Positions 17,785-58,978 of a stretch of DNA of 58,978 nucleotides are shown here, in pieces. Numbering within the stretch: position 1 is the first letter of the stretch; each line of letters begins with the position of its first letter. Location: positions 1-58,978 of IMG/VR virus record IMGVR_UViG_3300012964_000011. One strand, 5' to 3'. A program made the position numbers and the translations under genes. The stretch is from a virus. Its lineage: Duplodnaviria; Caudoviricetes. The notes beneath the pieces are model-generated. The model was given only the letters and a program-made list of their open reading frames with translations, made no database searches and was not told where the DNA came from.

Positions 17785-17787
17785 TAC

Positions 17788-18396
17788 TTACCACCTACTA
17801 GGTAGACCACTAGTGTTCTTGTCGTGACACCAATACCACGTTTTCTGGACAAGATGTCCTATTGTACCCATCTTATTACAACGTTCTATGAATCCCCAAT
17901 CTTCATTAGATCGCATACCATCTTCATAAATTCCACCTTCGTCTGGCATGATGAATTCTGCCTCTTTGGCGAGATCTGTCTTTACCAGTGTGGTAACTGT
18001 GGTATGTCTAGGATTCTCCGGGTCCCATGGGTCAAGATAGTGCCCAGGGGGGAATACGGGATCATTTTCGTAAACAATACCTCCTTTCATGATTTTGAAC
18101 CATGAATACACAAAATCGTAATTCCAGTCCAGGGCGAATTTGATCAGGTCTTCCAGATGATTTGGCATGAACATGTCGTCATCGTCAAGAAACGCCACCC
18201 AGGGGGTAGATACGGCGTCTAGTGCACGTTGCCTGGTCTTAGCAGCACCTTCCTTGTACACGTCTGTTGTGATGATGTGCGCGAACGCAGGGTACGTCTG
18301 AGCAGACACACTGTTTACACATCGCATGATCTCTGTTTTTCGCGGTGGAATATGAGGTGTACAGACAGTGATCTCAGCACCACGAATGACGTCCAT
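17788..18396 (-). CDS. GT2 family glycosyltransferase
   Basis: SVSAQT, GAAKTR, WVAFLDDDD, EDW. Confidence 0.85.
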   Translation of the reverse strand: MDVIRGAEITVCTPHIPPRKTEIMRCVNSVSAQTYPAFAHIITTDVYKEGAAKTRQRALDAVSTPWVAFLDDDDMFMPNHLEDLIKFALDWNYDFVYSWFKIMKGGIVYENDPVFPPGHYLDPWDPENPRHTTVTTLVKTDLAKEAEFIMPDEGGIYEDGMRSNEDWGFIERCNKMGTIGHLVQKTWYWCHDKNTSGLPSRW

Positions 18397-18521
18397 TTGG
18401 CCAGACTCCCACGGTAGGGTATTTGTTACTATGAATATTATAGCGTGTGTAGGACGCAAGATCTTTACGTCTAGGTAATACAACTACCAGTAGTTGCGAC
18501 ACTCATATGCGATCGTCTATG

Positions 18522-33075: not shown

Positions 33076-35343
33076 CTAGATCATACATATTCTAGATGTA
33101 GCACATTTACGAACACTTTCTTTCATCCTGGCAGCAAGATTATCACGTTTCTTACACGCGTAATCGTCTGTCATAGATTTGAACATAGCTAGTTGTGCTG
33201 GAGTAAGAGAGTCCAGGGGGGATGATGTATCCGGATTATCAGTGATGATCTCTACATCAACTGGTTCTTCCGCAGGATGTGTCCAGATACCAGCTGCAAC
33301 CAGAGCTGTCTGTTGCCCGGAGGCGACCATGGTAGACAACCTAGGAACTGGAAATCCGGGAACGTTGACTGCGAGCATTGCCACAAGTCGCAGTGCGCCC
33401 TTGATGCCTCGCCAGTCTCCAGATAGTTTTGCTGCCCGTAGTTCAGATACCTTTGTATCTGGAACATCTGGCCGAATCTTTCCAGAGATCCAGATACCAT
33501 AATCATCACAACCACTGGCAACATCTGCCACTACGGTACCGGTGTTGTCATAGTGTGCTACAGCCTTTTCAGCGTCCACACCATACGTAGACGCATGACC
33601 GGTGTCCATGGTGATGGTTCCTGTAGCTACCTCACCAGCGTCTGTCAGAACAGATCCTAGACGGTAATACTCATGTGCATCCTCGTAAGGAGGCTGTACA
33701 CATACCCCCTGGATTCCGGTATGGCAGGTTCCGAAAATCGCAGCATGACCTGAAATACGGCCATCATCTGTGACGGTTACTGGTGTGGGACCATCAAACT
33801 TTGGGTCTTCAAAGTAAGAACGGGATGGAAGCACTGCACTGGCAGTCATAGCAACTTCGTGAACACAGTTGATCTGGGACTCAACGAATGCGGGCAGTGC
33901 AACTACCGTAGCTCCTCTGATCCTTCCAGAATGAATGATCTTGTTTTCCAGGATAGGCGGACCATCCCCGACACTGGGAGCAAACACGTACTCGATGTCC
34001 GCCTCGGAGACATCGTCAACGTCTACGGAAACACCCTTAAGGAAACCATCGTGCACCATTCTGTGTACTTCAAAACCGTTTCCAACCATGTCGAATATGC
34101 CGCTACCTCTGATGATCGACATGTCCTCTGGATCTCTCCAGATATTTTCGATCATCCCAGATATTACAGCTCCCTCGTGTCCAGGGAGGGAGGATGGTTG
34201 CCATTGGAACGGTTCCGGTAGATTTGCCCATGTAAGGGATCCGGGTGCGAATGTCCTGCCATCCCCAGTAGGTCTACCCTCTACGACCAGCACCCCTGTC
34301 CAGGGGATATTTGTAATAGTATCTACATCACTTGCAAATATTTCAGTGTTACTTGCCATACCAACATCTAGATAAGACTGATGATCTTCCATAGATTCTG
34401 TAGCATCGCTTAACGATGGTTCAGCTGCATACAAGGCACGCAATTGCCGGAACGCACTTTGCGCAGTGTCATGGCATCCCATGACCTCGCCGCTACCCTC
34501 TTTGACTACGGCATAGGGCTTACTGTCTTCACACTGCTCTGATCGCACTACTTTGTATGGCATGACGTCCCCCGTGCGTGCCAAAGGAATATCAGTTACC
34601 TGATCATCGTATGCTACCCGTACCTTGTCAAAAGTAATAGGTCCCAATCTATCCATAGCCGCATCATGCACATCTGGATCCAGGGTGTAACCCAAGGTTA
34701 TATGTGCTACGAATGGTGAATGCTGCTTACGAACTGAATCTCCCAGAACATCACGAGCGGACATTTCTGCCATCGTGTGAACTGTCATTAGTTCATTGTC
34801 GTTGTCACCAACATTGAGAACAATTGCCGGATTATCCAGGGGATTAAATGTGGATACTCCGAAAACATTTGCGGATATCTGTGAAATACCAGATACACGT
34901 TGTGCCACACTCATGATCAGATCATCTGGATTAAGTGCGAGTGTATCTGTCTTACCCAGATACATAAGTGTTAGATGTATACTCTCCCTGGGCTCACGTC
35001 CATCTACTGCCAGTTTATCGAGATCACTCTCACTGGGAACCAGTGCGATCATCACGCCATCACTGTTTTCAGCACTGGCTCTGATGGCTGAATCCAGCAG
35101 TTTGCAGGATGTGACCTTACCTAAATACGTCTGTTGTCTGGCACCAGCTGACGTTGCAGAGACATGCTCGTCCACGAGGGTGAGGATGTCTCGGATCGAC
35201 AGTCGAGCGCACTCATCTATCGTAGATTGTACATATTTTGCGGCATCGATTATTTCTTTGCCCGACCTCGACAGCGTCATGCCATGTCGGCCGTAAGACT
35301 TGAAAGTTGAGTAGATCAATTCCCCGTCCATATGCCTACTCAA
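33076..35343 (-). CDS. 2H phosphoesterase fused to a capsid maturation protease
   Basis: GVMIALVP, HLTLMYLG and HITLGY (two HxT motifs); then EGRPTGDGR, GVSVD, GATVV..PAF, LSGDWR, AVNVPGFP; lies between portal and capsid. Confidence 0.8.
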   Translation of the reverse strand: MSRHMDGELIYSTFKSYGRHGMTLSRSGKEIIDAAKYVQSTIDECARLSIRDILTLVDEHVSATSAGARQQTYLGKVTSCKLLDSAIRASAENSDGVMIALVPSESDLDKLAVDGREPRESIHLTLMYLGKTDTLALNPDDLIMSVAQRVSGISQISANVFGVSTFNPLDNPAIVLNVGDNDNELMTVHTMAEMSARDVLGDSVRKQHSPFVAHITLGYTLDPDVHDAAMDRLGPITFDKVRVAYDDQVTDIPLARTGDVMPYKVVRSEQCEDSKPYAVVKEGSGEVMGCHDTAQSAFRQLRALYAAEPSLSDATESMEDHQSYLDVGMASNTEIFASDVDTITNIPWTGVLVVEGRPTGDGRTFAPGSLTWANLPEPFQWQPSSLPGHEGAVISGMIENIWRDPEDMSIIRGSGIFDMVGNGFEVHRMVHDGFLKGVSVDVDDVSEADIEYVFAPSVGDGPPILENKIIHSGRIRGATVVALPAFVESQINCVHEVAMTASAVLPSRSYFEDPKFDGPTPVTVTDDGRISGHAAIFGTCHTGIQGVCVQPPYEDAHEYYRLGSVLTDAGEVATGTITMDTGHASTYGVDAEKAVAHYDNTGTVVADVASGCDDYGIWISGKIRPDVPDTKVSELRAAKLSGDWRGIKGALRLVAMLAVNVPGFPVPRLSTMVASGQQTALVAAGIWTHPAEEPVDVEIITDNPDTSSPLDSLTPAQLAMFKSMTDDYACKKRDNLAARMKESVRKCATSRICMI

Positions 35344-36995
35344 CTTTCCAATTGACGTACATTGGCTGGTGCCTTGCTCCGCATTCCCTTTCCACTGTCT
35401 TTCTTGACAGTGTCTGGCCTAGTTCCTGGTGGTTCTTTGGCAGTCGTCTTGGAAACTAGTGACGGATCTACAGGTTCAACATCTGTGTCAATACCTGGAT
35501 GTTGCATATCATTTGGATTCTTGACCTTACTGATGATGTCTAACATTTCATCATTAGGTACGTCATTGAGCAGTAGTGCAAGTGCTGTCAACGAATCAGC
35601 ATTGGCAGACATCGCGATACGCCGAAGTACGATGTCTCGAATCTCTTTGTCATCCGGTGCATCGTCTTCTGGATCGAACCCGGAAGCGTCACGAAGGGTT
35701 GAGCCCTTAAGCTCGCCACGGTCGAACATTTCCTGTGCTGGCACTGTCCTGTCCGGCACCTGTGACAGTTCAGACGTGTCATACCACATGACGTAACGTC
35801 CACCGTCAGATCGCACCTCTGGCACCTTGTTGGCTGCCAGCATAGGCCCGAGGAATCCAAGGGAGAGTCCGTTACAGATGGTTTCCGCACCAGGAGAAAT
35901 GTAGATCTTGATAGCTGACTCTTCCATTTGCCACTGTCCCCAGTGGTTAATATCAGACATACCAGTCAAAATTTCAGTTGGTATGTTGATGGAAGTAGCC
36001 AAACGCTTTATTGCACGTTCCCTGTCCTCATAGACCTTATCTCCCATTTCGGTAGAAAAGGTCATATGACGGAATGATTCTATGTACTGTGAAGGAACAC
36101 GAATCGGGATAGGAACTGCCGCTGCCGCGGATCCAGGGTTTTGGATAGCTTTAGACGCTATGTCTACTAGATCAGCAATGAAGGGGTCTGGTGCGTTCTT
36201 GTGCTGAGGCTTGGACGGTAGTTGTACCTCATCTGGGATCAACAGGATGCCGTTTGACGCCAACCTGGATAGCAGAATGGCAACTATGTATCGATTATAG
36301 AAGTCAATCTCTTTGAGAATTGGTAGTGCTGCTATGACGGCAGATGATGCCTCACACGCGTACTCATCATCTTCTTGCCAAATACGGGCAACCAGCGTAT
36401 CAGGTCCGAGTGTACGCCACTCATTCTTGACGTCCCCCATGACGTCGTATCGGTTGTGGATTGACGTTTTCCCGTTGCTAGTAGCCTTGACATAGGTACC
36501 TGATTTACGTAGCTCAGAGTTAGATCTGACAGACCACACCCGCTGTCCGTCTACCTCTTCACCAACCAGGTAGGACTCACCCGGTACGGCCAGCTGAACA
36601 GCCAGCTTACGCATCAGTGCAGCTTGCCCGCCGATTCCTCCGCCCAGTTCCTCAACCAGGTTGGACACTGCTACAGCTTCAGTGTCAGCATCTTTATTGT
36701 TGATGATGATCTGAGGATCTTGCCCAGGATAGGCGATTGCTGCCCGAATCCGGACACGGGACATGCTGTTGCCATACCAATCATGGATGGCAAAGTGAAG
36801 TTCTCCCATATTCTTGTAATAGTTCCAAGCTTCAGCCTGGACTGATGTGCGCTGTATGATAAAACTACGAGATAGATCGTCAACCAGTTGTGCAGACGCG
36901 GTGATTCCACTATCACTAATGACTGATCTCTTAGTCATTTGACGTGGCTTGAGTGACACAGGATTACTCCTGCGCACATGTCTACGCTCCGCCAT
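35340..36995 (-). CDS. portal protein
   Basis: QAEAWNYY...GEL, L.VPGE.Y, SRLA.NGIL..P, NHW..W; position after the terminase. Confidence 0.85.
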   Translation of the reverse strand: MAERRHVRRSNPVSLKPRQMTKRSVISDSGITASAQLVDDLSRSFIIQRTSVQAEAWNYYKNMGELHFAIHDWYGNSMSRVRIRAAIAYPGQDPQIIINNKDADTEAVAVSNLVEELGGGIGGQAALMRKLAVQLAVPGESYLVGEEVDGQRVWSVRSNSELRKSGTYVKATSNGKTSIHNRYDVMGDVKNEWRTLGPDTLVARIWQEDDEYACEASSAVIAALPILKEIDFYNRYIVAILLSRLASNGILLIPDEVQLPSKPQHKNAPDPFIADLVDIASKAIQNPGSAAAAVPIPIRVPSQYIESFRHMTFSTEMGDKVYEDRERAIKRLATSINIPTEILTGMSDINHWGQWQMEESAIKIYISPGAETICNGLSLGFLGPMLAANKVPEVRSDGGRYVMWYDTSELSQVPDRTVPAQEMFDRGELKGSTLRDASGFDPEDDAPDDKEIRDIVLRRIAMSANADSLTALALLLNDVPNDEMLDIISKVKNPNDMQHPGIDTDVEPVDPSLVSKTTAKEPPGTRPDTVKKDSGKGMRSKAPANVRQLES

Positions 36996-49488: not shown

Positions 49489-49589
49489 ACATAACTACAA
49501 ATCACCCCCCACCTGGATTAACGTGTTGCAGTTTCTTTGATTAGTAACTGCAACCTATTCCAACCATCCTAGGAAGGTACACTATCAGC

Positions 49590-49853
49590 ATGAATCAGAC
49601 ACCGGAATGCATCGCTAAGATGGTACATTACAGAAGCTATGGTACACCAAATGGAGAGTACCCATCTGTATGTCGAGCCGCTGTCATAACCGAGATTGAC
49701 CCAGAGAATGACAAATTTAGTGAATCTGTAGGGTTGTGCGTGCTGAACCCTACCGGAATGTTCTTCAACCAGCACGTACCACACGATTCTTATGATCAGG
49801 TAGTAAATCGTAGTACCTGGACACCAGGTACTTGGCATTGGCCTTGCCACTGA
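49590..49853 (+). CDS. hypothetical protein, paralog 3
   Basis: VHYRSYGTP.GEY...CRAAVITE, VGLCVLNPTG.FF, GTWHWP; TACACT-N6-ATG. Confidence 0.7.
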   Translation: MNQTPECIAKMVHYRSYGTPNGEYPSVCRAAVITEIDPENDKFSESVGLCVLNPTGMFFNQHVPHDSYDQVVNRSTWTPGTWHWPCH

Positions 49854-49859
49854 TCATAG

Positions 49860-49898
49860 ACGTAGGAGAGGGAGTCCCTCTCCTACGTTTGTCTTTTT
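49860..49898 (+). terminator. intrinsic terminator
   Basis: ACGTAGGAGAGGGA/TCCCTCTCCTACGT then TTGTCTTTTT. Confidence 0.75.
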
Positions 49899-49947
49899 AA
49901 CCATCCTAGGAAGCTAGGTAACCACTACCCTGTGACGTAGACCACTG

Positions 49948-49985
49948 TCCACTAACTTGACTTCAACCTCTCCAGCTGTCATTCT
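49948..49985 (+). promoter_or_regulatory. early promoter sharing GTCCACTARCTTGAC with 54605
   Basis: TTGACT-N17-CATTCT. Confidence 0.5.
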
Positions 49986-50114
49986 ATATGCGGCAAGCAA
50001 AACGGCCAGGGAGACAAGGGGAGTCTTCTGAACAGTTTCTGAATTGTAGTTTGAAAATTACATGCAACATCGTCATCAGATTTAGATCAGTATTTATGAT
50101 TTAGGGAGATCATC

Positions 50115-50537
50115 ATGGCTAAGACACTCTACGATGGATACACCAAAGCCCAGTTGATCAATTGGGCGCGCGATGAGAAGATCCGTGGATATACCCGGAT
50201 GAACGGTTACCAGCTGTTACAGGTCTGTCAGGAAGCCCAGATGGTGCGTAACTACGGTAGAGAGCAGGCTCTACTCGAACAGGGCACCGTAGGTCCCGGA
50301 ACTGTCCTCCAATACCGAGGTCACCCAGACTACGTAATCAGGGTAAGCTCCGGCATCATGCAAGACAGTATGGGAACCTACGTATACTCGGAGACACTCT
50401 CCCTTCCCTATGAGCTACGGTACGGATTCTCGCTTAAGCGTGACGTTGCCATTGATAACGAGCTCAAGGCTTCATCCCCAGAACTACACAAGGACCGTCT
50501 CTACAATCTAGAGCACATTCCATGTACCGAGATCTGA
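50115..50537 (+). CDS. protein with a Rho-N-like N-terminal helical domain
   Basis: TKAQLINWARDEKIRGYTRMN..QLL. Confidence 0.6.
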   Translation: MAKTLYDGYTKAQLINWARDEKIRGYTRMNGYQLLQVCQEAQMVRNYGREQALLEQGTVGPGTVLQYRGHPDYVIRVSSGIMQDSMGTYVYSETLSLPYELRYGFSLKRDVAIDNELKASSPELHKDRLYNLEHIPCTEI

Positions 50538-50586
50538 TCTACTTTCTGGATGTTCGGATATTGCCGAACATCCAAATGGAAGATCA
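50535..50586 (+). ncRNA. repeated intergenic stem-loop, copy A
   Basis: TGATCT-ACTTTC-[11-bp stem]-AATGGA-AGATCA. Confidence 0.7.
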
Positions 50587-50614
50587 AATCATCTAATCAG
50601 AAAGGTTATCTGAC

Positions 50615-51061
50615 ATGAAGCGCAGTGAACTCCACGTAGGAGATGAACTCTATCATGCCACAGAGTGGCAATGGAAAAATCACGAAGGGTATAAGGCTAC
50701 TGTCTGTTCAACAGAGCCTTACAAAGAAAGTACATGGGGTCGTCACTACTCAGTACCTAAGGGTCCTGGGGTTCTAGTAACGATGGGGAATAGCGACTAT
50801 CAACGAGTCGTCACCCTTGGATCCCTACGGGGACCATACGAACAAATAGCGGCAGAGGTAGAAGTCAGAAGAGCAGCCGCACAACTTCAAGAAAAAGAAG
50901 CTGACCAGCTCTACAAAGAGCGTTCCGCGCGAGTTACCGAACTCATCGAACGGGCAACTGCACAGGGCATCACCGCTCGTGTAGAGGATGGTTCTCGATC
51001 TATAGTCCTATCTGTATCCGACTTCACCAAGCTCATTGAGCATCTGGATAGGACAACATGA
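50615..51061 (+). CDS. hypothetical protein
   Basis: GAAAGG RBS; SH3-like N-terminus plus coiled coil. Confidence 0.65.
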   Translation: MKRSELHVGDELYHATEWQWKNHEGYKATVCSTEPYKESTWGRHYSVPKGPGVLVTMGNSDYQRVVTLGSLRGPYEQIAAEVEVRRAAAQLQEKEADQLYKERSARVTELIERATAQGITARVEDGSRSIVLSVSDFTKLIEHLDRTT

Positions 51062-51303
51062 AGAACATCGTAGATGACAACATGAACAAAATCATAGAGG
51101 CTCAACGAAGGTACATAGACGCATGCCTCGACTGCGACGTACTGGTCGACCAGTTGGAGACATGCAATTACGACCCGTCGTTGTCCGAGGAGATGCTACG
51201 TGCCGCTGACCATGCCGCTGTCGTCTTACTGTTACAAATCAAAGTTGCCGTAGACAAACGACGTGAAGCTTGGAAGGACTTGAATACCACACTGAACAGC
51301 TGA
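51058..51303 (+). CDS. hypothetical protein
   Basis: ATGA overlap; AGGA RBS. Confidence 0.6.
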   Translation: MKNIVDDNMNKIIEAQRRYIDACLDCDVLVDQLETCNYDPSLSEEMLRAADHAAVVLLLQIKVAVDKRREAWKDLNTTLNS

Positions 51304-51320
51304 TCAGTCGCTAACCAGTT

Positions 51321-51354
51321 GGGGGTAGGCAAAGTGCCTACCCCTACTGCTTTT
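51321..51354 (+). terminator. intrinsic terminator
   Basis: GGGGTAGGC/GCCTACCCC then a U-tract. Confidence 0.65.
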
Positions 51355-51565
51355 GCAACAACCACAAATGCAATCCTTGCATTCTGAACACGCGTTCATA
51401 AACTTCTAGTCCATATTCACACTATTTATCGATAAAAATCTACACAAATCCACATAAATACTCGACATGAAGAATCAATATTCTAAGTTTGCCCCTCCCC
51501 CTGGATTGATGTACTGTGCCTTGAGTACCGAGATTCCCGGGGATCCAGAACAGAATGGGGACAAA

Positions 51566-52123
51566 ATGCCTGAACCTGTAAGTTTATGTCAAATGACCTT
51601 CAGCCAGAAAATGGCATATGCCCTGGAAAAAGAGGAGGAACTGAAAGAAGGCGAAGTTAAATCGCGGAACCGGGCCAGGTACGGATTGCCGAGCATCACC
51701 GAGACGGTGTGTCGTGACATTTGCCTATCGAAGTCTCAGTACTACCGGGGGAAGAGAATATGGACAGCAAGATGGTCAGATGATCCAGAGGTTGCAGATA
51801 CAGCTGAGGAACTCATCCGCCTCCTGGATTCTTCCGGAATCACGATTGTAGAAGCAGACAAGCGACTGCATAGACTGAGAGACCAGCGAGCGCAGGGAGT
51901 CCGAACAAAGTTTACAGTCCTAGAACAGCATAAACTTCTCAAAACACTGCCCGAACTTGCTGGTATGGCCCTTGCTCTGTCCAGGGTGCCGGAGTTATCC
52001 GGCGATTGTGATCCGGTACTCATCTACCGATCCCTGGATTTTGCGAACCGGGCGAGAAGGGATCTTAAGCATCTAATTGATACACTAAAGAAATTTACCC
52101 CAAACGGGGACTATTTCTCATAG
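51566..52123 (+). CDS. helical protein resembling the HTH half of ParB
   Basis: S.KMAYA.E...R..ICLSKSQYYRGKRI; adjacent to the ParB-like gene. Confidence 0.45.
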   Translation: MPEPVSLCQMTFSQKMAYALEKEEELKEGEVKSRNRARYGLPSITETVCRDICLSKSQYYRGKRIWTARWSDDPEVADTAEELIRLLDSSGITIVEADKRLHRLRDQRAQGVRTKFTVLEQHKLLKTLPELAGMALALSRVPELSGDCDPVLIYRSLDFANRARRDLKHLIDTLKKFTPNGDYFS

Positions 52124-52146
52124 TCACTACTAAAGGAGGATAATCA

Positions 52147-52923
52147 ATGAAACGACCGATCACTACGATCCTAAGAGCATCACAACTCAAGATTGATCCT
52201 ACTGTGCAGCGTAGGATCAACATGTCTCGTGTGTCGGAGATGGCACATAACCTAGAGTATGAGGCGCTGGGATTCATCACCGTGTCAGCACGTAATACAG
52301 ATGAGAGTCAATACTACGTGATTGACGGGCAACACCGCGTAGCGGCTGTTTGCAAGGTGAATTCGGGCTATCAAATGAGATGTCAGGTTTTTTATGGTTT
52401 GACCATCCAGGAAGAGGCACAACTGTTCAGGCTTCTGAATAACACTGCAAAGCCGGATGCCATTGACTCATTCCTGATCAAGTGTGTGGAAGGGGATCCA
52501 GCTTCCCTGGATATTGACAAGATTCTAGAAGAACGAGATTGGTCTGTCTCCGCCCGCGGAGCGGAGCGTGTAGTACGGAGCATCCGGACTATTGAGAAGC
52601 TGTATGCCAGGGGTACTCCGAAGACGTTGGAGAGCACCGTGGACGTTCTTACGGCAGCGTACGGGTACCACTACACCACCATGGATTTTCGTCTCGTGTC
52701 GGGGTTGTGGGAATTTTTCCATAGGCACGTGACAGTTGCGATCCCCGATGAAGGGCGTGTAATCAAGGTCCTCAGCACGTATCCAGGGGGTAGCCAGGCA
52801 CTGATTGGAATGGGCCTAGGACATGCCCTTACCAGGAACGGTGTTGGTACGTGCATCGCACGGGTAGTCACAGAACTATATAACAAAGGACTTAGGACGA
52901 GAATGAAACTCTCAAGCATCTAA
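52147..52923 (+). CDS. ParB/Srx-like (DUF6551-type) protein
   Basis: LKIDPTVQR, YVIDGQHR, EEAQLF..LN; GGAGG RBS. Confidence 0.8.
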   Translation: MKRPITTILRASQLKIDPTVQRRINMSRVSEMAHNLEYEALGFITVSARNTDESQYYVIDGQHRVAAVCKVNSGYQMRCQVFYGLTIQEEAQLFRLLNNTAKPDAIDSFLIKCVEGDPASLDIDKILEERDWSVSARGAERVVRSIRTIEKLYARGTPKTLESTVDVLTAAYGYHYTTMDFRLVSGLWEFFHRHVTVAIPDEGRVIKVLSTYPGGSQALIGMGLGHALTRNGVGTCIARVVTELYNKGLRTRMKLSSI

Positions 52924-52992
52924 TAGACGTTGATGTGCCAACAGTACTCAACTGCTGTTGGCATATCACATATCGAGTATAGGAGAGACACA

Positions 52993-53172
52993 ATGCATAG
53001 GAATTGGAAACCAAAACACGAGCTCAGACCCAACAAAAATGTGAATGTAGTGCCATCTGACGGTAAACTGGTAATGATTGGATGTGCACTAATTGCCGCC
53101 GGGTACGCGATAATCGCGTATCTGGTGAGCCAGATTGACCTGTTTTCGGGAATACCCGTAGGAGGAAACTGA
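52993..53172 (+). CDS. small membrane protein
   Basis: AGGAG RBS; one TM segment. Confidence 0.55.
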   Translation: MHRNWKPKHELRPNKNVNVVPSDGKLVMIGCALIAAGYAIIAYLVSQIDLFSGIPVGGN

Positions 53173-53174
53173 GT

Positions 53175-53462
53175 ATGAATTCCAAAATCAAAATCAGAGG
53201 TTATGTTGCAGCGGCAACTGCATCCCTGGGCTTGTTGGTACTACTCCTCACAACCGCGGCTACATGCGAGAGGACTCCACAGGATACGTCTTGGGGAGTA
53301 GTAATAGAGCACTACCGGGAGGGTGACGAGCCCGGGCCGCATTGGAAGAAGTCTCAGTGGTGCATCAAGTTTAAGAACAAATGGGGTAAAAAAGGATATA
53401 CCTGTTCAGACAACAAGCAGATCTGGACAGATTACCCAATCGGTTCCAATTACAAGAAGTGA
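53175..53462 (+). CDS. putative secreted protein or lipoprotein
   Basis: Basic N-terminus, hydrophobic stretch, AATC. Confidence 0.55.
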   Translation: MNSKIKIRGYVAAATASLGLLVLLLTTAATCERTPQDTSWGVVIEHYREGDEPGPHWKKSQWCIKFKNKWGKKGYTCSDNKQIWTDYPIGSNYKK

Positions 53463-53468
53463 GGCATC

Positions 53469-53984
53469 ATGCACGACATGATCGAATGTATTCATCCTTG
53501 TCCCATACATGAGCCGTCTGAACACCACATGACGAAGTGGCCGATGGTCTGGAAGCCGGACAGGGGAATTATAGAGCGGATGTGTATCCATGGCGTTGGG
53601 CATCCCGATCCGGATTCTCTGACGTATCTACATGGACGAGACGACGGGGTACACGGATGCTGTGGGTGTTGTGCCAGTCCTGAACAGCAACGAGAGGATG
53701 TTGTTGTGAGTAAGCGCCATCTTGGAGATTTCCGAGAGCCTAGCGAGAAAGATCCAGTGACACTTACTGAATATCTGGTGCTAGTTAGAGCGTCATCTAA
53801 CTATCCATGGACAGAAATGCCAAATTACGTGTATCCAACACTAAGTAAGGCATTAGAGGTTTTTGGCCAATACTCGATGGTAACGCTGAATCCGAAGCAT
53901 CAGTACCGCATAGTCCGGAGGACGTGGACAGAGACCCCAGAGGTAGATGTGACGGTTGTGGAGTTGGAGATGGAAAATGACTGA
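53469..53984 (+). CDS. Cys/His-rich hypothetical protein
   Basis: CPIH.PS.HHM, ERMCIHGVGHPDPD, HGCCGCC. Confidence 0.65.
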   Translation: MHDMIECIHPCPIHEPSEHHMTKWPMVWKPDRGIIERMCIHGVGHPDPDSLTYLHGRDDGVHGCCGCCASPEQQREDVVVSKRHLGDFREPSEKDPVTLTEYLVLVRASSNYPWTEMPNYVYPTLSKALEVFGQYSMVTLNPKHQYRIVRRTWTETPEVDVTVVELEMEND

Positions 53985-54282
53985 TGAGCAAATCATCAAC
54001 ATGTTGGTCGATGCGCTAATTCATGGCGGAGTGCCCCTCAAAAAGGCCAGTCGTCTAGCGCAGGATATTTTCGAAGTGCTAGACGATGCTGGTCTCATGC
54101 TGCCGGAAACAGATAGTACTGGACACTGGTATATCGAACTAGATGTGCCTGGATCTATAGACCGTACCAAGGACGAGCACGAGATGTTGTCCGATGTCGT
54201 CGTCCACCGGAATACAAATGGTAGCATTGTAATGCTAGAAATACCAGATACGTACACAATAAGAGGCAACTATGATAAGTGA
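53977..54282 (+). CDS. hypothetical protein with a DUF2283-like C-terminus
   Basis: WYIEL...VVV..N.NGSIV.LEI. Confidence 0.5.
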   Translation: MTDEQIINMLVDALIHGGVPLKKASRLAQDIFEVLDDAGLMLPETDSTGHWYIELDVPGSIDRTKDEHEMLSDVVVHRNTNGSIVMLEIPDTYTIRGNYDK

Positions 54283-54457
54283 TGATCTAAGAGATGAAGA
54301 GCTTCTTAAGGCTAAAGAAGCAGCAAAACTACTCAATGTGCATCCAACTACGATAACTCGCTGGGCTAAGTCCGGTAAACTGCCATACGCACTAACGCCA
54401 GGTGGGCGGAAGTTGTACAGGAAGTCCGTCATACTAGAAATAGTAGATAGAAAATAG
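54272..54457 (+). CDS. second BldC-like / MerR-excisionase HTH protein
   Basis: LLK..EAAKLLNVHPTTITRWAKSGKL...TPGGRK.Y. Confidence 0.85.
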   Translation: MISDDLRDEELLKAKEAAKLLNVHPTTITRWAKSGKLPYALTPGGRKLYRKSVILEIVDRK

Positions 54458-54462
54458 TGGAT

Positions 54463-54539
54463 AGAGATATTAGGCATACCTAATATCTCTCAAGAATAGG
54501 GCACTGATCACCCCGGATAGACTACATGCCCGGGGTGAT
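54463..54539 (+). terminator. two tandem hairpins
   Basis: AGAGATATTAGG/CCTAATATCTCT and ATCACCCCGG/CCGGGGTGAT. Confidence 0.6.
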
Positions 54540-54604
54540 TTCTATCTATACTCATGTATATTACCTGGTCAACACAAGTCTCTAAAGAATCTTGAAAGAT
54601 GCTC

Positions 54605-54642
54605 GTCCACTAGCTTGACATTCCCCTATCACGTGCTAGTGT
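54605..54642 (+). promoter_or_regulatory. early promoter
   Basis: GTCCACTAGC-TTGACA-N16-TAGTGT. Confidence 0.55.
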
Positions 54643-54763
54643 AGTGACATGCCCACGAGGGAACGGGCAACCGGGACAGGGGATCCAGGGAAAAGGTTCA
54701 CTTCAAGTAATTTGACAAAACCATACGAACCACAAAAGATCACTTAATAGTGAGGATAAAGAC

Positions 54764-54958
54764 ATGGAAAACATCATGTTTATCACGGTTTGCGATGTTT
54801 GTGGTGTACAGGTCGCAAGGCGATCTGACACGGACATCCTAGAGGATGTCGAGGGGACACTCTCTGGCACAGGAGGTGTCGCGCCTACGGGCACCGAACA
54901 CGAATGTGACGGATGGCAGGTTGGAACGCACAACCCGAAGATGCCACAGTTCATGTAG
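54764..54958 (+). CDS. small protein with CxxC
   Basis: GAGGA RBS; CDVCG. Confidence 0.55.
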   Translation: MENIMFITVCDVCGVQVARRSDTDILEDVEGTLSGTGGVAPTGTEHECDGWQVGTHNPKMPQFM

Positions 54959-55060
54959 TACAGAGGATGCTTTCAGCTTTCAGACTGACACAGGGATCAT
55001 GACCCGGGCATCCGCGGAACACGGGGGATAGTTGATAGGATTTAGGTAGGAGAGACCACA

Positions 55061-55663
55061 ATGAGTGCACCAGCCATTGACATCAGAGACACGCGACCGG
55101 CTTCAGACCGGCAGGTCGAGTACATCAGAGGACTTCTAGAGACCAGGGATGTCTCACAACTGACTAGCACAATCGCTTTGGACACCATCACCCTTCTGGG
55201 CGGTCTGTACGCAGACACCATCAGCGACTCCATGGCGGACTCGACAATCAAAGCCTTGTTAGCCATACGGCCGGTGCAAGTTCAGGCCGCTACGACCAAA
55301 TCAGAGCCGGTAGAGGTGCCATCATGGGACGCCATCCGGAAGATGACAAGGGACCTTCCGGACGCTTACTACGCGCTGGAAGCGAAAGATGGCAGCAAAC
55401 ACTTCTTCTTCCAGATCAAGACCGGCAAGGACGGGCGCAAGCGCGTCTATCACGTAGTCGGCGCACCAAAAACGTTCAGAAGAAAGTCCATGAAAATGGA
55501 GTGGGTGTACGCAGCAGTAAAGAAGATCACTAACGACCCTAAAGCAGCGGCTCAAGAGTTCGGAAAGATCTTCACGCGCTGTGCGGTTTGCTCCGCACCG
55601 CTGAGCGATCCGGAGTCCCTAGCTCGCAACATGGGACCTGTTTGCGCTACCAGGTTCTGCTAG
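55061..55663 (+). CDS. DUF6011-like Zn-finger protein
   Basis: ASDRQVEYI..L N-terminus; CAVCSAPLSDPESLAR..GPVCA. Confidence 0.75.
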   Translation: MSAPAIDIRDTRPASDRQVEYIRGLLETRDVSQLTSTIALDTITLLGGLYADTISDSMADSTIKALLAIRPVQVQAATTKSEPVEVPSWDAIRKMTRDLPDAYYALEAKDGSKHFFFQIKTGKDGRKRVYHVVGAPKTFRRKSMKMEWVYAAVKKITNDPKAAAQEFGKIFTRCAVCSAPLSDPESLARNMGPVCATRFC

Positions 55664-55729
55664 TTTGATCATTTTTGCACGGTGCACGTACATCCGCATC
55701 ACGTACGTGCACCGACATGAACGATCAAA
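55664..55729 (+). ncRNA. repeated intergenic stem-loop, copy B
   Basis: TTTGATC-ATTTTTGCA-[12-bp stem]-ACATGAAC-GATCAAA. Confidence 0.65.
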
Positions 55730-55751
55730 TCACGAGTGACAGGAGTTTGAC

Positions 55752-55952
55752 ATGTTTGAAATAGGTGCGCAGGTACGGATAGCAGACACCAATGATCAGG
55801 ATCCAGAAGTGGCTGGATGTGTCGGAGAAATAGTAGATATCGTCTTGAGTCCGAAAAGACAACTTGTTGCATGGTACGTGGTACGTGTGACTGATAGATT
55901 CGGATCCGTAACAAATTACTGGTTTCAACCTTTTGAGCTGGAAAATATTTGA
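55752..55952 (+). CDS. small SH3/KOW-like protein
   Basis: FEIGAQVRI...G.VGEIV...Y.V...WF...EL; AGGAG RBS. Confidence 0.65.
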   Translation: MFEIGAQVRIADTNDQDPEVAGCVGEIVDIVLSPKRQLVAWYVVRVTDRFGSVTNYWFQPFELENI

Positions 55953-56005
55953 TTGATCTGCTTTAGTCGTGTTCAGTCCTACTGAACATGGCTATGGAAG
56001 ATCAA
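55953..56005 (+). ncRNA. repeated intergenic stem-loop, copy C
   Basis: TTGATCT-GCTTT-[13-bp stem with G:U]-ATGGA-AGATCAA. Confidence 0.7.
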
Positions 56006-56028
56006 GTACACAACAGAAGGAGACTGAA

Positions 56029-56328
56029 ATGTCAGAAAAGAACGACAGGGAGTGCACTGTACAGGTTTCACACACGTTAGAGGCACTGCTACCAGGAATA
56101 CGGGAGATGGTCAACCGATTCCGCGATGGCACAGAGGCGAGCCCGTACGCGTGTCTGTACACACTGCGAAGGGAGATCGGGTACCTGACACAACACCTCG
56201 CTGGGTATAAAGCGCCGACACTCAACGAGTGTGATGCGGTGTGTCGCATGTATTTCTCATATCAGGGACCCGACGACGGTAGTCAGACATGGGGACCTAA
56301 TAACATCAAAAGAGGGTTACGATCTTGA
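56029..56328 (+). CDS. hypothetical protein
   Basis: AAGGAG RBS. Confidence 0.55.
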   Translation: MSEKNDRECTVQVSHTLEALLPGIREMVNRFRDGTEASPYACLYTLRREIGYLTQHLAGYKAPTLNECDAVCRMYFSYQGPDDGSQTWGPNNIKRGLRS

Positions 56329-56559
56329 GTTCAAATACACAGGACCAAACCCAGTTGGTCCACAACGTAACGGATGGACCATCGTCGGCAAATGTCCCGA
56401 ATGGGACGAAGCACGGACACAACAAGCGCAGGCGTACAGCGCGGCATGCGCAGCAATGAGTAACGGAGAGTGGGACGGTATTTGGTACTAGATTTTTGGA
56501 TCATGTTCAACTCTGTTGAACATGGTCTTGGAGCCTAGTCAACGAGAGGTTGTGCTCAG

Positions 56560-56778
56560 ATGGTCAAATACAGAAGAGTTAATTGGAATGTGTACGGGTA
56601 TTGTGCCACTTGCAACGCGGATCCAGGGGGGGCATGCAAGAATCTACGCTACACAGATGCTAGATCATCTCACCCGCTGTACAACGATACCCCGCACCGT
56701 GGGCGCACGAGGCTCACGGTAGAGCAACAGGAGTGGGAGTACAGCTATAAGCAGCAGTATGAGGACTACTCCGGCTAG
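56560..56778 (+). CDS. phage Zn-finger protein
   Basis: CATCNA.PG..C...PH.GR. Confidence 0.6.
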   Translation: MVKYRRVNWNVYGYCATCNADPGGACKNLRYTDARSSHPLYNDTPHRGRTRLTVEQQEWEYSYKQQYEDYSG

Positions 56779-56857
56779 TTTCTGTGGTATCCGTATGAAC
56801 TATACGGATATCGCAGTGACCGTCCGGTCAGCACAAATATCAAATCAGGAGTTCATC

Positions 56858-58249
56858 ATGTCTAGTGCAGAGACTCAAAGCATTCCAAGCATTCCAAGCA
56901 TTCCAATCATTGAGGTGGATGCTGACCAGCTGTATATGGAACAGACCGGAGAGCTTCCTCGGACCCTGTCCTGGGCGTTGTCCACTGATTCGATATTTAT
57001 CGATGGAATCCTCAAGCGTCTTATGGCCTCAATGCGGTCCGCGGTCTATCGAGGAAACGTCTCTTTCGTTCTGGAATGGGATCATGATACGAAAGCCACC
57101 AGACCAGTTGAGTACGGTATAGAGGCGTTCTGTCAGGGTGATCTGACGGTGTGGTCGGACGGTGGGGAACATTCCCCTCGACCGTGGCGGCTATCCGCCC
57201 GCGTCGAAGCGCGGATGGATGACTACGGGGTTGGAGGATTTCACGCAGTCCCTGATACACCAGGAGAGGCTATTGTAGCCTCCAGGCACACATTGGAGGT
57301 CACTAAATTCGTTGGACAGTCGGTAGCCAACATGATTGTGGGACTGCTCCCTGGTCTACTGGCTCGCGAGCACATTGAAGACCTGCTTGAACTTCCGCGT
57401 TCTAGAATGCCTCTACCGGGTGATGTCCGGGAGTGGGAGGAACTCTCCCAGGACTGGAAGTGTAAGGTACGTCCGCCAGTAGCTGGACCTGATCAGTACG
57501 CCAAAGCTGAGGAAATTTCCAAAATGATAAATGATGAGATTACTGATCATCGAAATGTGATCCTGTCTCTGATTGAAGACATCCTCGGGATTTCTGGCAC
57601 ATACGACCTGAAACCTGGTGACAAGTCTGTAATCAGATGTGATAAAGATATTTACACATTGGATGCTGCCAGACTGGCAAATATACTAACTCTGTGTGGA
57701 TATCCCATCTACACAGATGAAAATGGACTTTCAATACCTCCAAAATCAAAAGATTTTTCCAGTAAATTGTACATGCTAATGGATCTGATTAAACAGTACC
57801 CATGGGTTAATTTAACTCCAAATCTCAATACTATGGCTTCTGTAATTGAAGTCCCTCTCAGTGCATTGGTACGTGCTGGTCTAGACGATTGTCTGGACGC
57901 GGTACGAGCATATGAGAAAACCATTCGAGATCATCTCAAAAATCTGATGGATCAACTTACCGCAGGATTGCTGGATGGTCCTGTAGGACAAATCCAGGGT
58001 ACGTACGATTGGCACGATGACAGTGAGCTGCCGTCAGCCAGTACTATCGCGTCGGCTAGGGATGCCATCATCTCCACCGGATGGTTGGCGGAAGTGCATT
58101 CCGTCGACCAGGAGGGACTACATCCGTGGGGGTTGTACGCGGTCCCATCGGACGGTTGGGACCACGGAATGCGCAGGGTGCTCAAATGGCTAACCGGAAG
58201 TCTCGGAGACACGCTCAAAGTTCTGGTAATGCCGGTTCCTGAACCGTAA
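56858..58249 (+). CDS. large hypothetical protein (463 aa)
   Basis: AGGAG RBS; long ORF with no motif I recognise; AGCATTCCA x3 near the start. Confidence 0.7.
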   Translation: MSSAETQSIPSIPSIPIIEVDADQLYMEQTGELPRTLSWALSTDSIFIDGILKRLMASMRSAVYRGNVSFVLEWDHDTKATRPVEYGIEAFCQGDLTVWSDGGEHSPRPWRLSARVEARMDDYGVGGFHAVPDTPGEAIVASRHTLEVTKFVGQSVANMIVGLLPGLLAREHIEDLLELPRSRMPLPGDVREWEELSQDWKCKVRPPVAGPDQYAKAEEISKMINDEITDHRNVILSLIEDILGISGTYDLKPGDKSVIRCDKDIYTLDAARLANILTLCGYPIYTDENGLSIPPKSKDFSSKLYMLMDLIKQYPWVNLTPNLNTMASVIEVPLSALVRAGLDDCLDAVRAYEKTIRDHLKNLMDQLTAGLLDGPVGQIQGTYDWHDDSELPSASTIASARDAIISTGWLAEVHSVDQEGLHPWGLYAVPSDGWDHGMRRVLKWLTGSLGDTLKVLVMPVPEP

Positions 58250-58260
58250 ACAACCGTAAA

Positions 58261-58316
58261 TTGATCAGCTTTGCCGTATGCTCGGGTAGTTCCCGAGCAT
58301 ACCCATGGAAGATCAA
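58261..58316 (+). ncRNA. repeated intergenic stem-loop, copy D
   Basis: TTGATC-AGCTTTGCC-[11-bp stem]-CCATGGAA-GATCAA. Confidence 0.7.
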
Positions 58317-58339
58317 AGGTTCATTAGTGAGGGTGAATT

Positions 58340-58558
58340 ATGGCAGATCAGGACATTCAAACGGAAGAGAGACACCGTTGGTATTTTGAATCCAGACACA
58401 AGTCAGAATCAGGTACTGAAAATTGGGATTTGGTTGATCAACGTATAGTACACCAGGAAGGCATTGAAGGTTTCGCTTCGACTTGTAGAGAGGAGTACCC
58501 TAATTACGATTTTCGCCTTGTTCATGAGATAGTACGTGAAGAGATCACCTATTTGTAG
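58340..58558 (+). CDS. hypothetical protein
   Basis: GAGGG RBS; WYFES...W...FRLVHEIV. Confidence 0.6.
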   Translation: MADQDIQTEERHRWYFESRHKSESGTENWDLVDQRIVHQEGIEGFASTCREEYPNYDFRLVHEIVREEITYL

Positions 58559-58653
58559 ATGGCCGCGCCCGGCCTGGTAGCCGGGCGCGGATCGCAACAT
58601 CGTGTTGTGGCTGGTGGCGTGGCAAATGAGCACGCGCTGAGCACACGTACGTA

Positions 58654-58893
58654 ATGGGAAAGATGATAGTTGATATGTCAGAATCTTCTACTTTGATCAA
58701 ATTCTACGTGGAATCATACGTAGAAGGTAGTCCGGACTGGAATTGGGTACGAGTTCAAGATTGGCACGAAACAGTAAGCGGAGCGGTTGACGCCATTCAG
58801 AAGCTGATGACTCAAGATTCGGTATCTGGTAGGCATATCAAATACCGAATTGTCCAGGAGATAGTCATTAGTCTAGTTTTACCTACACATTAA
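58654..58893 (+). CDS. hypothetical protein, likely paralog of 58340-58558
   Basis: FYVES...W...YRIVQEIV. Confidence 0.55.
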   Translation: MGKMIVDMSESSTLIKFYVESYVEGSPDWNWVRVQDWHETVSGAVDAIQKLMTQDSVSGRHIKYRIVQEIVISLVLPTH

Positions 58894-58896
58894 CGT

Positions 58897-58978
<82 letters not shown>

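Follow-up and report, generated by a model that had tools for sequence, protein, structure and literature searches.

The genome of an uncultured wetland phage contains a hairpin unit of about 55 bases six times, each time in the gap between two co-directional genes, and a seventh copy lies between genes of an unrelated 1.2-kb metagenome contig (L152). Judging by their alignment, the copies are diverged homologues with compensatory changes, and they appear to form a sequence family not yet described; no Rfam family matches the element. We tentatively read the copies as RNA punctuation between cistrons, of the kind provided by the RNase III sites of T7, which combines processing with a protective 3' hairpin; this reading is based on anatomy, and we give it somewhat less than an even chance. 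The window referred to below is the whole stretch of phage DNA analysed (58,978 nt).

Detection and placement of the copies

A strict pattern (TGATC-N25-55-ATGRANGATCA) was matched four times, always on the + strand, at 50535-50586, 55666-55727, 55954-56004 and 58262-58315; 100 shuffles averaged 0.03 matches, and none of them reached four. The scan of the phage's own genome returned four forward and no reverse matches, and the four clear copies of the original prediction are real. A covariance model (R1) trained on copies A, C and D only recovered copy B (E 2e-6) and copy E at 56486-56540 (E 0.0021), the latter having been proposed as a degenerate fifth copy at about 56488-56538, and it added a weak sixth, copy F (E 0.15). 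Each time, the + strand match beat its - strand counterpart. A second model (R2), trained on all seven copies (six from the window plus L152), found no additional copy in the window, where its next best match had an E of 0.18. The observation of a repeated intergenic motif is confirmed. The AGATCA sequences near genes 50115 and 54764, which had been associated with it, form no hairpin (fold z of -0.3 and -0.4), and R2 places no copy there.

All window copies are on the + strand. In copy A (50535-50586), the basal stem opens with the three bases of TGA, the stop codon of gene 50115-50537, and the 3' end of the element lies 28 nt from the ATG at 50615. Copy B (55664-55729), with a 12-bp upper stem and an 11-nt loop, starts 2 nt past the stop codon TAG (55661-55663) and ends 24 nt ahead of the ATG at 55752. 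The same distance separates copy C (55953-56005), which starts 1 nt past a TGA (55950-55952), from the ATG at 56029, and copy D (58261-58316), which starts 12 nt past a TAA (58247-58249), from the ATG at 58340. Copy D is the nearest relative of the L152 copy (blastn, 78.6% identity over 56 nt). Copy E (56486-56540) has CUAG/CUAG in its basal stem in place of GAUC and lies 21 nt from the ATG at 56560; its internal TAG (56489-56491) is a stop codon only if the frame 56231-56491 is a real gene, which is uncertain. Copy F (56770-56828), a probable copy missed by the original prediction, has a CCGG/CCGG base and a 16-bp upper stem, contains the stop codon TAG (56776-56778) in its lower loop and lies 31 nt from the ATG at 56858.

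The window copies start between -8 and +12 nt from a stop codon and end 21-31 nt ahead of the next start. The stop codon is located in the helix base or at most 2 nt from it in five of the six, and also in L152, and the distance to the start codon is 24 nt in four of the seven copies (B, C, D and L152). The spacing of 10-15 nt claimed between the element and the Shine-Dalgarno sequence holds for copies A to D (12-13 nt), but not for E (4 nt) and F (20 nt). Copy A is located in a putative operon at 49.9-51.3 kb and the five others in a putative operon at 54.6-58.9 kb; the region is probably transcribed as these two rightward early operons.

Nine terminator-like calls were made between 49500 and 58978, none of which coincides with a copy. 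No copy has a T-run, and no sigma-70-like promoter call falls on any of them, whereas canonical T-run terminators close the operons (49856-49892, 51320-51346, about 54506-54548 and 58897-58930). This supports the earlier statement that the copies are not ordinary terminators.

Fold, covariation and strand preference

All seven copies form an interrupted helix of 21-25 bp. Folding energies of the five first-reported copies lie between -25.0 and -31.3 kcal/mol (z between -4.5 and -7.0), and in each case none of 200 shuffles matches this. Copy F folds at -31.7 kcal/mol (centroid, and also in a 67-nt cut), with a minimum free energy of -32.4 kcal/mol and a z of -4.9 in an 86-nt cut. In the MAFFT alignment the seven copies are in structural register and share invariant U-A and C-G pairs. 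In this alignment 19 of 24 pairs are altered on both sides and pairing is kept in 88.6% of 166 cells, compared with 65.2% in shuffles (0/500 reach it), counts that can be inflated by kinship, six of the seven copies coming from one genome, and that a DNA hairpin gives equally. When the partner is shifted by 1-3 columns, at most 7 both-side-changed pairs and at most 39.6% pairing are obtained. RNAalifold independently yields the same set of three helices, in which 16 of 20 pairs show compensatory changes. Contigs aligned to the element-bearing DNA display no variation, and no RNA run contains this DNA.

The conserved lower part consists of UUGAUC and then CUUU, opposite AUGGAA and GAUCAA, whereas the upper stem varies freely provided that pairing is kept. 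The upper stems had been described as unrelated and completely different; this is wrong, as they align in register with compensatory changes and copies A, C and E have an ATGTTC/GAACAT core in common. The basal stem is fixed, as claimed, to the extent that TGATC/GATCA is present in A-D and L152, but CUAG in E and CCGG in F replace it, both paired. An internal loop is present as well, but it is small: a 1x1 or 2x2 mismatch, accompanied by a module of a U.G wobble and then a U.U mismatch that is invariant in all seven copies.

Several features differ between the strands. The kept U.G wobble would read as an A.C mismatch on the opposite strand, and G.U pairs make up 17 of 158 pairs on the + strand versus 7 of 149 on the - strand. 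Five of the seven copies are more stable on the + strand, among them copy C, which has three G.U pairs on that strand (-28.9 versus -18.0 kcal/mol). Copies A (-32.8 on the - strand versus -29.4 on the + strand) and B (-37.7 versus -31.3) favour the - strand. Because the wobble is kept, G.U pairs are in excess on the + strand, most copies fold better there and all seven, L152 included, are co-oriented relative to the flanking genes, the element probably acts on the sense strand only.

Resemblance to the RNase III sites of T7

Folding of the T7 early intergenic regions gave hairpins of similar size and layout with the stop codon in the basal stem, which we take to be the RNase III sites R0.3, R0.5, R1, R1.1 and R1.3. 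In the 0.4/0.5 gap, an 8-bp basal stem that includes the stop codon is followed by an internal loop and an upper stem of about 10 bp, and 17 nt separate the hairpin from the next start, comparable to the 21-31 nt of the phage element. The T7 sites, too, recur as hairpins of about 50-60 nt that are homologous to one another and lie between co-directional early genes; in both types an interruption separates a lower from an upper stem, and both lack a U-tract. The two differ in that no sequence similarity is evident, that T7 conserves the upper stem together with the loop's 3' side whereas the phage element conserves the lower stem and covaries at the top, and that the T7 interruption is a larger asymmetric loop instead of a small mismatch plus the U.G/U.U module. 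The T7 analogy of the original prediction thus fits in its anatomy, the 0.4/0.5 gap having the same layout as found here, and the interpretation as a whole is partly supported: the T7-like anatomy and the non-terminator character hold, the description of the upper stems as unrelated does not, and the Rho-N-like gene and the attC-like sites (see below) found no support. Cleavage at the RNase III sites of T7 early mRNA is proven according to PMC4858673.

By analogy, the elements would act in cis as RNA hairpins within the sense transcripts of the two early operons. The interrupted helix spans about two turns of double-stranded RNA and would be recognised by a double-strand-specific endonuclease, most simply the RNase III of the host. 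The cut would fall in or near the conserved lower part, leaving the upstream message with a protective 3' hairpin and letting the downstream message start with a free, unstructured ribosome-binding site. We infer both the RNA cleavage and the identity of the enzyme. RNase III, however, requires little sequence specificity, so that this enzyme does not readily account for a lower stem as strongly conserved as the one observed.

Alternative explanations

A recombination linker or small mobile palindromic DNA element is an unlikely alternative. The repeated 55-bp unit would exist chiefly because it allows gene cassettes without an assigned function to be swapped, lost or gained, either through homologous recombination between copies, as proposed for PeSL (promoter-early plus stem-loop) cassettes, or by spreading itself like REP or MITE elements, and this would be compatible with an RNA role. 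L152 speaks for this alternative: R1 matches the element there (E 1.6e-10) amid genes unlike those of the window, tblastx finds no similarity between the flanking genes, and the 56-nt element is the only shared DNA. The proposal that the element marks cassette boundaries thereby gains one data point, from a single foreign copy on a 1.2-kb contig. The carrying region is moreover hyperplastic and consists almost solely of genes without relatives; at 42-59 kb only one gene (DUF6011) has a tblastx match among five relatives, whereas the structural and replication modules are shared. REP/BIME and MITE-like elements are, like the phage element, short imperfect intergenic palindromes past stop codons within operons, and REP elements can spread and are credited with stabilising the mRNA upstream of them. 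Those elements, however, form families in host genomes that number hundreds of copies and have transposases of their own. Across 185,579 species genomes, the strict motif gave 29 pattern matches, none of which folds like the element (0/29), so that it was found in no cellular genome, and no transposase, HUH enzyme or recombinase was found among the approximately 50 ORFs scanned of the apparently near-complete phage genome. No target-site duplications were noticed on informal inspection of the flanks.

The PeSL cassettes of T4-type phages, as described in PMC2839356, resemble the phage element in being concentrated where genes without relatives abound and in placing one motif between different genes in different phages. 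According to the same source, these conserved intergenic motifs flank such genes and mediate shuffling and mini-circle formation, and recombination between copies has been demonstrated (PMC2839356). PeSLs carry a strong sigma-70-like promoter and their stem-loops terminate (PMC2839356), whereas the phage copies have neither call; with no promoter, a defining half of a PeSL is missing. Compensatory changes and an invariant wobble would also be unexplained by pure recombination homology.

Slightly less probable still is an operator for a dedicated phage factor, or a translation device. In the former case, the lower stem with its U.G/U.U module would be bound by a phage RNA-binding protein such as a translational repressor, an antiterminator or an endoribonuclease; in the latter, protein-free case, the hairpin would keep the ribosome-binding site unpaired or appose stop and restart sites for re-initiation. 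A sequence-conserved base below a top that conserves only pairing is the pattern expected for protein recognition at the hairpin base, the recurrent distances to stop and start codons are in line with either form, and the operons with copies encode many small proteins without an assigned function, some with zinc-finger-like domains. The CUAG and CCGG bases of E and F nevertheless weaken the case for strict sequence recognition, and the Shine-Dalgarno spacing spans 4 to 20 nt. No RNA-binding or nuclease domain was identified beside the copies; the protein of gene 50115-50537, which abuts copy A and had been called Rho-N-like, matched nothing in Pfam, not even at E ≤ 5, and nothing in PHROG.

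We consider it improbable that the copies are intrinsic terminators or attenuators without a U-tract that lower transcription stepwise along the operon. Such terminators have been proposed for Actinobacteria, and an actinobacterial host is plausible because the relatives of the phage have 64-70% GC and the distant matches of its primase are mostly phages of Mycobacterium, Microbacterium, Arthrobacter and Streptomyces. The hairpins are also stable (-25 to -32 kcal/mol) and directly follow stop codons. The phage, however, already uses canonical terminators at its operon ends, five copies in one 4-kb operon would silence the distal genes, including one of 463 aa, and termination accounts neither for the sequence conservation in the lower stem nor for the invariant mismatch module.

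Double-stranded DNA sites for a protein, for example sites that serve the ParB-like protein (52147-52923) as operators or in partition, are very improbable. GATCAA follows TTGATC within 60 nt at five places versus 0.47 in shuffles, and two such pairs lie outside the motif, one at 15545-15560 and the other, within the ParB-like gene, at 52193-52220. A duplex-binding protein, however, selects neither compensatory arm changes nor a conserved T.G mismatch, and the conserved outer halves lie anywhere between 40 and 52 bp apart. Such sites would be comparable to repeats of Cluster O and Cluster K mycobacteriophages. Copy A shares the 7-bp arms of its upper stem with the 17-bp palindrome TGTTCGGNNNCCGAACA of Cluster O mycobacteriophages (PMC4351075), with a 6-nt instead of a 3-nt spacer, and copies C and E hold one-base variants of these arms. 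The Cluster O arms are described as invariant over 34 sites, with a 3-bp spacer, no orientation bias and an often intragenic location (PMC4351075), whereas the arms of the phage element vary with compensation, its spacers measure 3-11 nt, and every copy is intergenic and points the same way. The Cluster O pattern has no match in the window at ≤ 2 mismatches. The extended start-associated sequences (ESAS) of Cluster K mycobacteriophages are likewise asymmetric, co-oriented, imperfect inverted repeats with a variable centre, which in siphoviruses of broadly this type directly precede the translation start of many non-structural genes (PMC3203893). In that report they have no known function, and its authors find RNA pairing unsupported given departures in the two arms and favour DNA-binding proteins (PMC3203893); the phage element, in contrast, covaries at most of its pairs. 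ESAS are also tied to a 13-nt start-associated sequence (PMC3203893). That sequence is absent from the phage, with one match at 2 mismatches versus 1.01 expected.

The attC-like single-strand recombination sites for an integron-type integrase that had been suggested are the least credible explanation: conserved outer inverted repeats, a variable, mismatched, paired centre and cassette-like gene boundaries give a general likeness, but neither a tyrosine nor another recombinase was found among the approximately 50 ORFs scanned, the outer repeats TTGATC/GATCAA differ from what we presume to be the integron core-site consensus, and the sense-strand hairpin is favoured, with the element in a fixed relation to stop and start codons.

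Copies and fold of the repeated hairpin

A strict TGATC/GATCA-based pattern matches four times in the window, always on the + strand, against 0.03 matches expected. The repeat of about 55 nt that had been reported between early genes is real, with four strict copies, namely A (50535-50586), B (55664-55729), C (55953-56005) and D (58261-58316), and a degenerate fifth, E (56486-56540). These five sites form single long hairpins with folding energies of -25 to -31 kcal/mol and z-scores of -4.5 to -7.0. A covariance model (R1), for which only copies A, C and D were used, recovers copy B with an E-value of 2e-6 and degenerate copy E with an E-value of 0.0021. R1 also gives a weak match (E-value 0.15) to a further site, copy F (56770-56828), a 23-pair hairpin that extends across a stop codon, with 31 nt between its end and the ATG at 56858. 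A second model (R2), built from all seven copies including one on a foreign metagenome contig (L152), finds no additional copy across the window, its next match (E-value 0.18) being a canonical terminator. Based on both models, six copies are counted in the window.

MAFFT places all seven copies in one structural register. The basal stem comprises 5-8 pairs (UUGAUC/GAUCAA in copies A-D and L152, CUAG in E and CCGG in F) and is followed inward by a 1x1 or 2x2 mismatch, by two to three pairs of which the last is a U.G wobble identical in all copies, and by a U.U mismatch present in 7/7 copies. One more pair and an upper stem of 9-16 pairs then lead to a loop of 3-11 nt, so that the minimum free energy structures contain 21-25 pairs in total. 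The upper stems had been described as unrelated in sequence, which is wrong: U-A and C-G pairs are invariant, the differences are compensatory, and an ATGTTC/GAACAT core is common to the upper stems of A, C and E.

The named structure is paired in 88.6% of 166 cells compared to 65.2% in shuffles, and none of 500 shuffles equals it. Both sides have changed in 19 of its 24 pairs, a count that comes from seven sequences, six of them from one genome, and that reads the same for RNA and for single-stranded DNA. When the partner is slid by one to three columns, at most 7 both-side pairs and at most 39.6% pairing are left. Unguided RNAalifold returns the same three helices, with 16/20 pairs compensatory. 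The structured intercistronic element family is real, well supported by covariation and absent from Rfam. A search of Rfam with covariance models, as proposed in the original prediction, matches the element to no family: at gathering score the whole window yields only a tRNA (15378-15453), and at E ≤ 1 the region yields only sub-threshold chance matches. One of the rejected matches is a plant microRNA precursor model lying over the copy A stem (20.7 bits, threshold 77), which we attribute to chance.

Several features separate the two strands. Read on the opposite strand, the conserved U.G wobble is an A.C mismatch, and G.U pairs account for 17/158 pairs on the + strand versus 7/149 on the - strand. 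The + strand folds better in five of seven copies, by a wide margin in C, E and F, while the - strand folds better in A and B; the orientation relative to the flanking genes is the same in 7/7 copies. No gene for a recombinase, transposase, HUH enzyme or RNase III was found among about 50 distinct open reading frames scanned (42 with Pfam, 20 with PHROGs). Given the compensatory arms, the U.G wobble, the strand bias, the co-orientation and the lack of a recombinase or RNase III gene in that scan, a sense-strand RNA is the most economical carrier of the structure.

Genomic setting and occurrence outside the window

The window (58,978 bases) is an entire virus record of IMG/VR, classified as linear with an estimated completeness of 73%. 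Its DNA is contained in wetland metagenome runs, and no RNA run is listed among those containing it. The contigs of four DNA runs are identical to the window, with no variants and no joints, a comparison at the level of contigs, in which ends and rare junctions are invisible. The same (GT)n run, with CAAC after it, is found at both termini (1-47 and 58930-58978), so the contig may close on itself or be terminally redundant, and hence nearly complete.

The structural module on the - strand is of the siphovirus type (terminase, portal, major head protein and tape measure), and the replication module encodes a family A DNA polymerase, helicases and a primase-polymerase. A 755-aa protein (33076-35343, - strand) has a 2'-5' RNA ligase (2H phosphoesterase) domain at residues 114-233 and also matches PHROGs of virion and portal-associated proteins. 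Two sugar-modifying gene clusters (42-3596 and 16696-18483, both - strand) encode TOD1/MUCI70-like and family 2 glycosyltransferases, an NAD-dependent epimerase/dehydratase and a methyltransferase; they are reminiscent of glycosylation genes noted in Cluster O mycobacteriophages (PMC4351075). The region of about 42-59 kb is a rightward block composed almost entirely of small genes without known families.

No DNA-level relatives were found among 50,697 named phage records (megablast and blastn). The major capsid protein identified six IMG/VR loci with 45-67% identity. As IMG/VR probes, the DUF6011 protein gave 14 pattern matches and the primase two, none of which was confirmed, and a neighbouring 496-aa protein had no relatives in IMG/VR. 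The five relatives found through the capsid protein, compared as whole records, have the structural and replication modules in common with the window; within 42-59 kb, the DUF6011 gene is the sole gene with a tblastx match in them. Since this block is nearly devoid of genes common to the relatives, the motif occupies a part of the genome that evolves fast and in which many genes lack relatives.

The strict pattern is absent from all five relatives, and R1 gives a single match in them, with an E-value of 6.4. A match of R2 (E-value 0.024) lies inside a 274-aa open reading frame of a genome with 64% GC and was taken as chance. In a 59-kb relative (G001), no hairpin follows the stop codon of the DUF6011 homologue. 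The same genome carries a hairpin (35653-35697, corresponding to 15653-15697 of locus L110) where a 179-aa gene ends at a junction with a convergent gene, with the TGA stop within TGATCTT...AAGATCAA and GGAAG ahead of the 3' arm. This single case, detected by neither R1 nor R2, is a possible distant analogue of the motif.

Three collections were scanned with exact patterns, leaving aside the window's own record and near-identical records. Many chance matches and one sequence folding like the motif were obtained, in scans that require exact flanks, which diverged copies such as B, E and F escape. One true copy, namely L152, is among the 49 matches in metagenome_contigs, and the strict pattern gave none among 98 matches in foreign stretches of viral_contigs; neither the 12 relaxed matches in viral_contigs nor the 29 matches in genome_contigs included one. 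Among the 98, 86 are one AT-rich 66-nt sequence (minimum free energy -6.7 to -13.3), which fails to fold into the hairpin, and the other 12 reach only -7 to -16.5.

L152 is a contig of 1,236 nt, the copy of which is scored by R1 with an E-value of 1.6e-10. Paired substitutions distinguish its upper stem from that of copy D; its basal stem includes a TGA stop, and 24 nt separate the end of the element from a downstream GTG start. The flanking genes have no similarity to the window by tblastx, and the DNA in common is limited to the 56-nt element itself (78.6% identity). The beginning of the contig (1160-1236, seen on the - strand) consists of short tandem repeats of GCGGACG-like units.

Gene junctions and candidate functions

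As read from the DNA, all six copies in the window lie between co-directional genes within units bounded by T-run terminators; T-run hairpins close operons at 49856-49892, 51320-51346, about 54506-54548 and 58897-58930. One copy falls in the predicted operon of 49.9-51.3 kb and five in that of 54.6-58.9 kb, where five of seven non-overlapping gene junctions carry a copy and 54958-55061 and 58558-58654 remain. The element starts at -8 to +12 nt relative to the end of the upstream stop codon, which lies within the helix in A, E (frame uncertain), F and L152. Between its end and the next start codon lies a single-stranded stretch of 21-31 nt (exactly 24 nt for B, C, D and L152) that contains the Shine-Dalgarno sequence.

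The gene upstream of copy E is ambiguous between the frames 56231-56491 and 56325-56459. The TTG at 56325, with a good Shine-Dalgarno sequence, overlaps the stop codon of the preceding gene (TTGA), but the frame that begins there has 44 codons and is of low complexity. The other frame looks more like a protein and terminates within copy E, at the TAG of 56489-56491; it lacks an in-frame ATG, and its overlap with the preceding gene amounts to about 98 nt. The ambiguity could stem from a frameshift or from misassembly. A small open reading frame starting from the conserved AUG/UUG/GUG of the 3' arm was considered and rejected: the frames end at 6-68 codons, lack a Shine-Dalgarno sequence and have no consistent relation to the next gene.

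The best explanation, which we hold tentatively, is that the element acts as intercistronic RNA punctuation, rated so because its layout matches that of the early sites of T7. After cutting by a double-strand-specific nuclease, a protective hairpin would remain at the 3' end and the ribosome-binding site would be free. When folded, the gap between T7 genes 0.4 and 0.5 gives an 8-pair basal stem with a UGA stop, an internal loop and an upper stem of about 10 pairs, with 17 nt from the end of the hairpin to the next start; other T7 early gaps contain related hairpins. We take these folded hairpins to be RNase III sites, the T7 record being without such annotation. Ten RNase cleavage sites are known in T7 (PMC6938266). 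Like these sites, the element spans about two helical turns, with 21-25 pairs, a 1x1 or 2x2 interruption and a U.U mismatch; unlike them, it contains no conserved segment in common, judged by eye from the T7 folds and the seven-copy alignment. The T7 analogy drawn in the original prediction stands for layout, without sequence homology to the T7 sites. Judged by its anatomy, the family most likely works like T7 RNase III sites, a reading that explains poorly why the sequence of the lower stem is so strongly conserved.

A DNA-level linker, at which genes without relatives are shuffled by crossover, is an unlikely but serious alternative that can coexist with an RNA role. It is modelled on the PeSLs of T4-type phages, conserved intergenic promoter-plus-stem-loop motifs that serve as crossover points for such genes (PMC2839356). 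The high turnover of 42-59 kb speaks for it, as does the position of the single foreign copy, in L152, between unrelated genes: like a PeSL, the element flanks genes without relatives in a hyperplastic region and recurs between different genes. Unlike a PeSL, it has no sigma-70-like early promoter. With the sigma-70-type consensus, four promoter-like sites are found in the region compared to 12.2 in shuffles, none of them at a copy. The missing promoter half and the restriction to one foreign copy keep our estimate of this linker low.

Somewhat less probable is that a dedicated factor binds the hairpin, or that the hairpin couples the translation of neighbouring genes, a reading kept alive by the conserved sequence of the lower stem, for which punctuation accounts poorly. 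The gene at 50115-50537, which had been called Rho-N-like, has no Pfam match even at E ≤ 5 and no PHROGs match.

More doubtful again is a portable cassette joint with an RNA and a DNA face, in which the RNA base with its U.G/U.U would be the site of a dedicated cutting or marking factor and the 55-bp DNA the crossover point for gene exchange in a wetland lineage. The punctuation element may double as such a joint, which would explain why the window and L152 have nothing but the element in common. In a bolder variant, with the stop at the 5' base beside a restart 24 nt past the 3' base, ribosomes may cross from gene to gene.

We regard terminators lacking a U-tract as quite improbable. The claim that the copies have no U-tract holds, the bases 3' of them being A-rich or mixed without T-runs, and none of nine terminator-like calls in 49500-58978 falls on a copy; unlike intrinsic terminators, no copy combines a G+C-rich hairpin with a U-run. 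Duplex DNA operators are very improbable, as a protein reading the duplex would not select compensatory changes in the arms. The attC-like sites suggested earlier can be set aside almost completely: the scanned reading frames encode no recombinase domain, which leaves room for a host-encoded enzyme, and the outer repeats (TTGATC/GATCAA, CTAG or CCGG) depart from what we take to be the core-site consensus.

The nearest described repeats in actinophage-like siphoviruses are the Cluster K ESAS and the Cluster O palindrome, both of which differ from the element. The 13-nt SAS has one match at two mismatches (5576-5588, - strand) versus 1.01 expected, and the 17-bp palindrome (invariant 7-bp arms, 3-bp spacer) has none at up to two mismatches. 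For ESAS, its authors explicitly state that RNA pairing is unsupported (PMC3203893), the opposite of the result here.

The element is of a kind already known among phage regulatory devices, going by its anatomy, while the family itself is new. To our knowledge, annotation of phages of environmental bacteria is almost wholly protein-level and RNA-level control is scarcely described, and the element is a clean case of phage RNA-level structure with covariation support. Its anatomy points to punctuation of early operons by a dedicated hairpin family in a siphovirus distant from T7; as far as we know, experimental evidence for such punctuation has so far come mainly from T7-like phages and from a few phages of Bacillus. 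R2 could be used to annotate the family in metagenomes, and the invariant U.G/U.U module is a precise mutational target. If the element is a crossover point for gene exchange, the PeSL idea would extend from T4-type myoviruses to an unrelated lineage; a simple stabilising hairpin would be ordinary, yet would help annotation.

Other repeats and hairpins in the window

Inverted repeats closed by TTGATC/GATCAA do recur elsewhere (15545-15560 and 52193-52220), stems of this type having been noted earlier; no connection between these two and the element was found. Five TTGATC-N(0-60)-GATCAA arrangements occur in the window versus 0.47 in 200 shuffles. The repeat at 52193-52220 is a perfect 10-bp inverted repeat with an 8-nt spacer inside a ParB-like (DUF6551) gene. 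AGATCA near genes 50115 and 54764 lies outside any hairpin and represents no copy. GATC as a restriction or methylation signal was rejected, as the tetramer is not depleted (371 observed versus 229 from base composition).

A stretch of about 1.7 kb (15000-16700) separates the replication genes, which run rightward, from the leftward genes. It has no long open reading frame and contains the tRNA gene (15378-15453), just downstream of which lies a perfect 14-bp hairpin (15537-15568) closed by TTGATC/GATCAA at 15545-15560. Long perfect hairpins of 19, 16 and 13 bp are associated with this stretch at 15005-15050, 16057-16099 and 16712-16741, respectively.

Plain hairpins without T-run or motif follow stop codons at 52931-52968 (16 bp), 54463-54490 (12 bp) and 58563-58590 (11 bp). 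The first is positioned like the motif copies, 7 nt past the stop and 25 nt before the ATG at 52994. The last, G+C-rich and located in the junction 58558-58654, matched CRISPR repeat models at 26 bits against a threshold of 45, which was taken as chance.

The 8-mer CCCCCTGG and its complement CCAGGGGG, frequently with the conserved extension CCCCCTGGGT, are hugely over-represented, with 20 occurrences in the window versus about 1.4 expected from base composition, 44 versus about 1.8 in G001 and 21 versus about 6 in a second relative (G002). They are mostly found inside open reading frames on both strands (in the window e.g. at 7045, 7059, 13893, 28187, 52783 and 56623), and a few form hairpins with an inverted partner (7042-7069 in the window). 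This 8-mer looks like a lineage-wide DNA-level signal.
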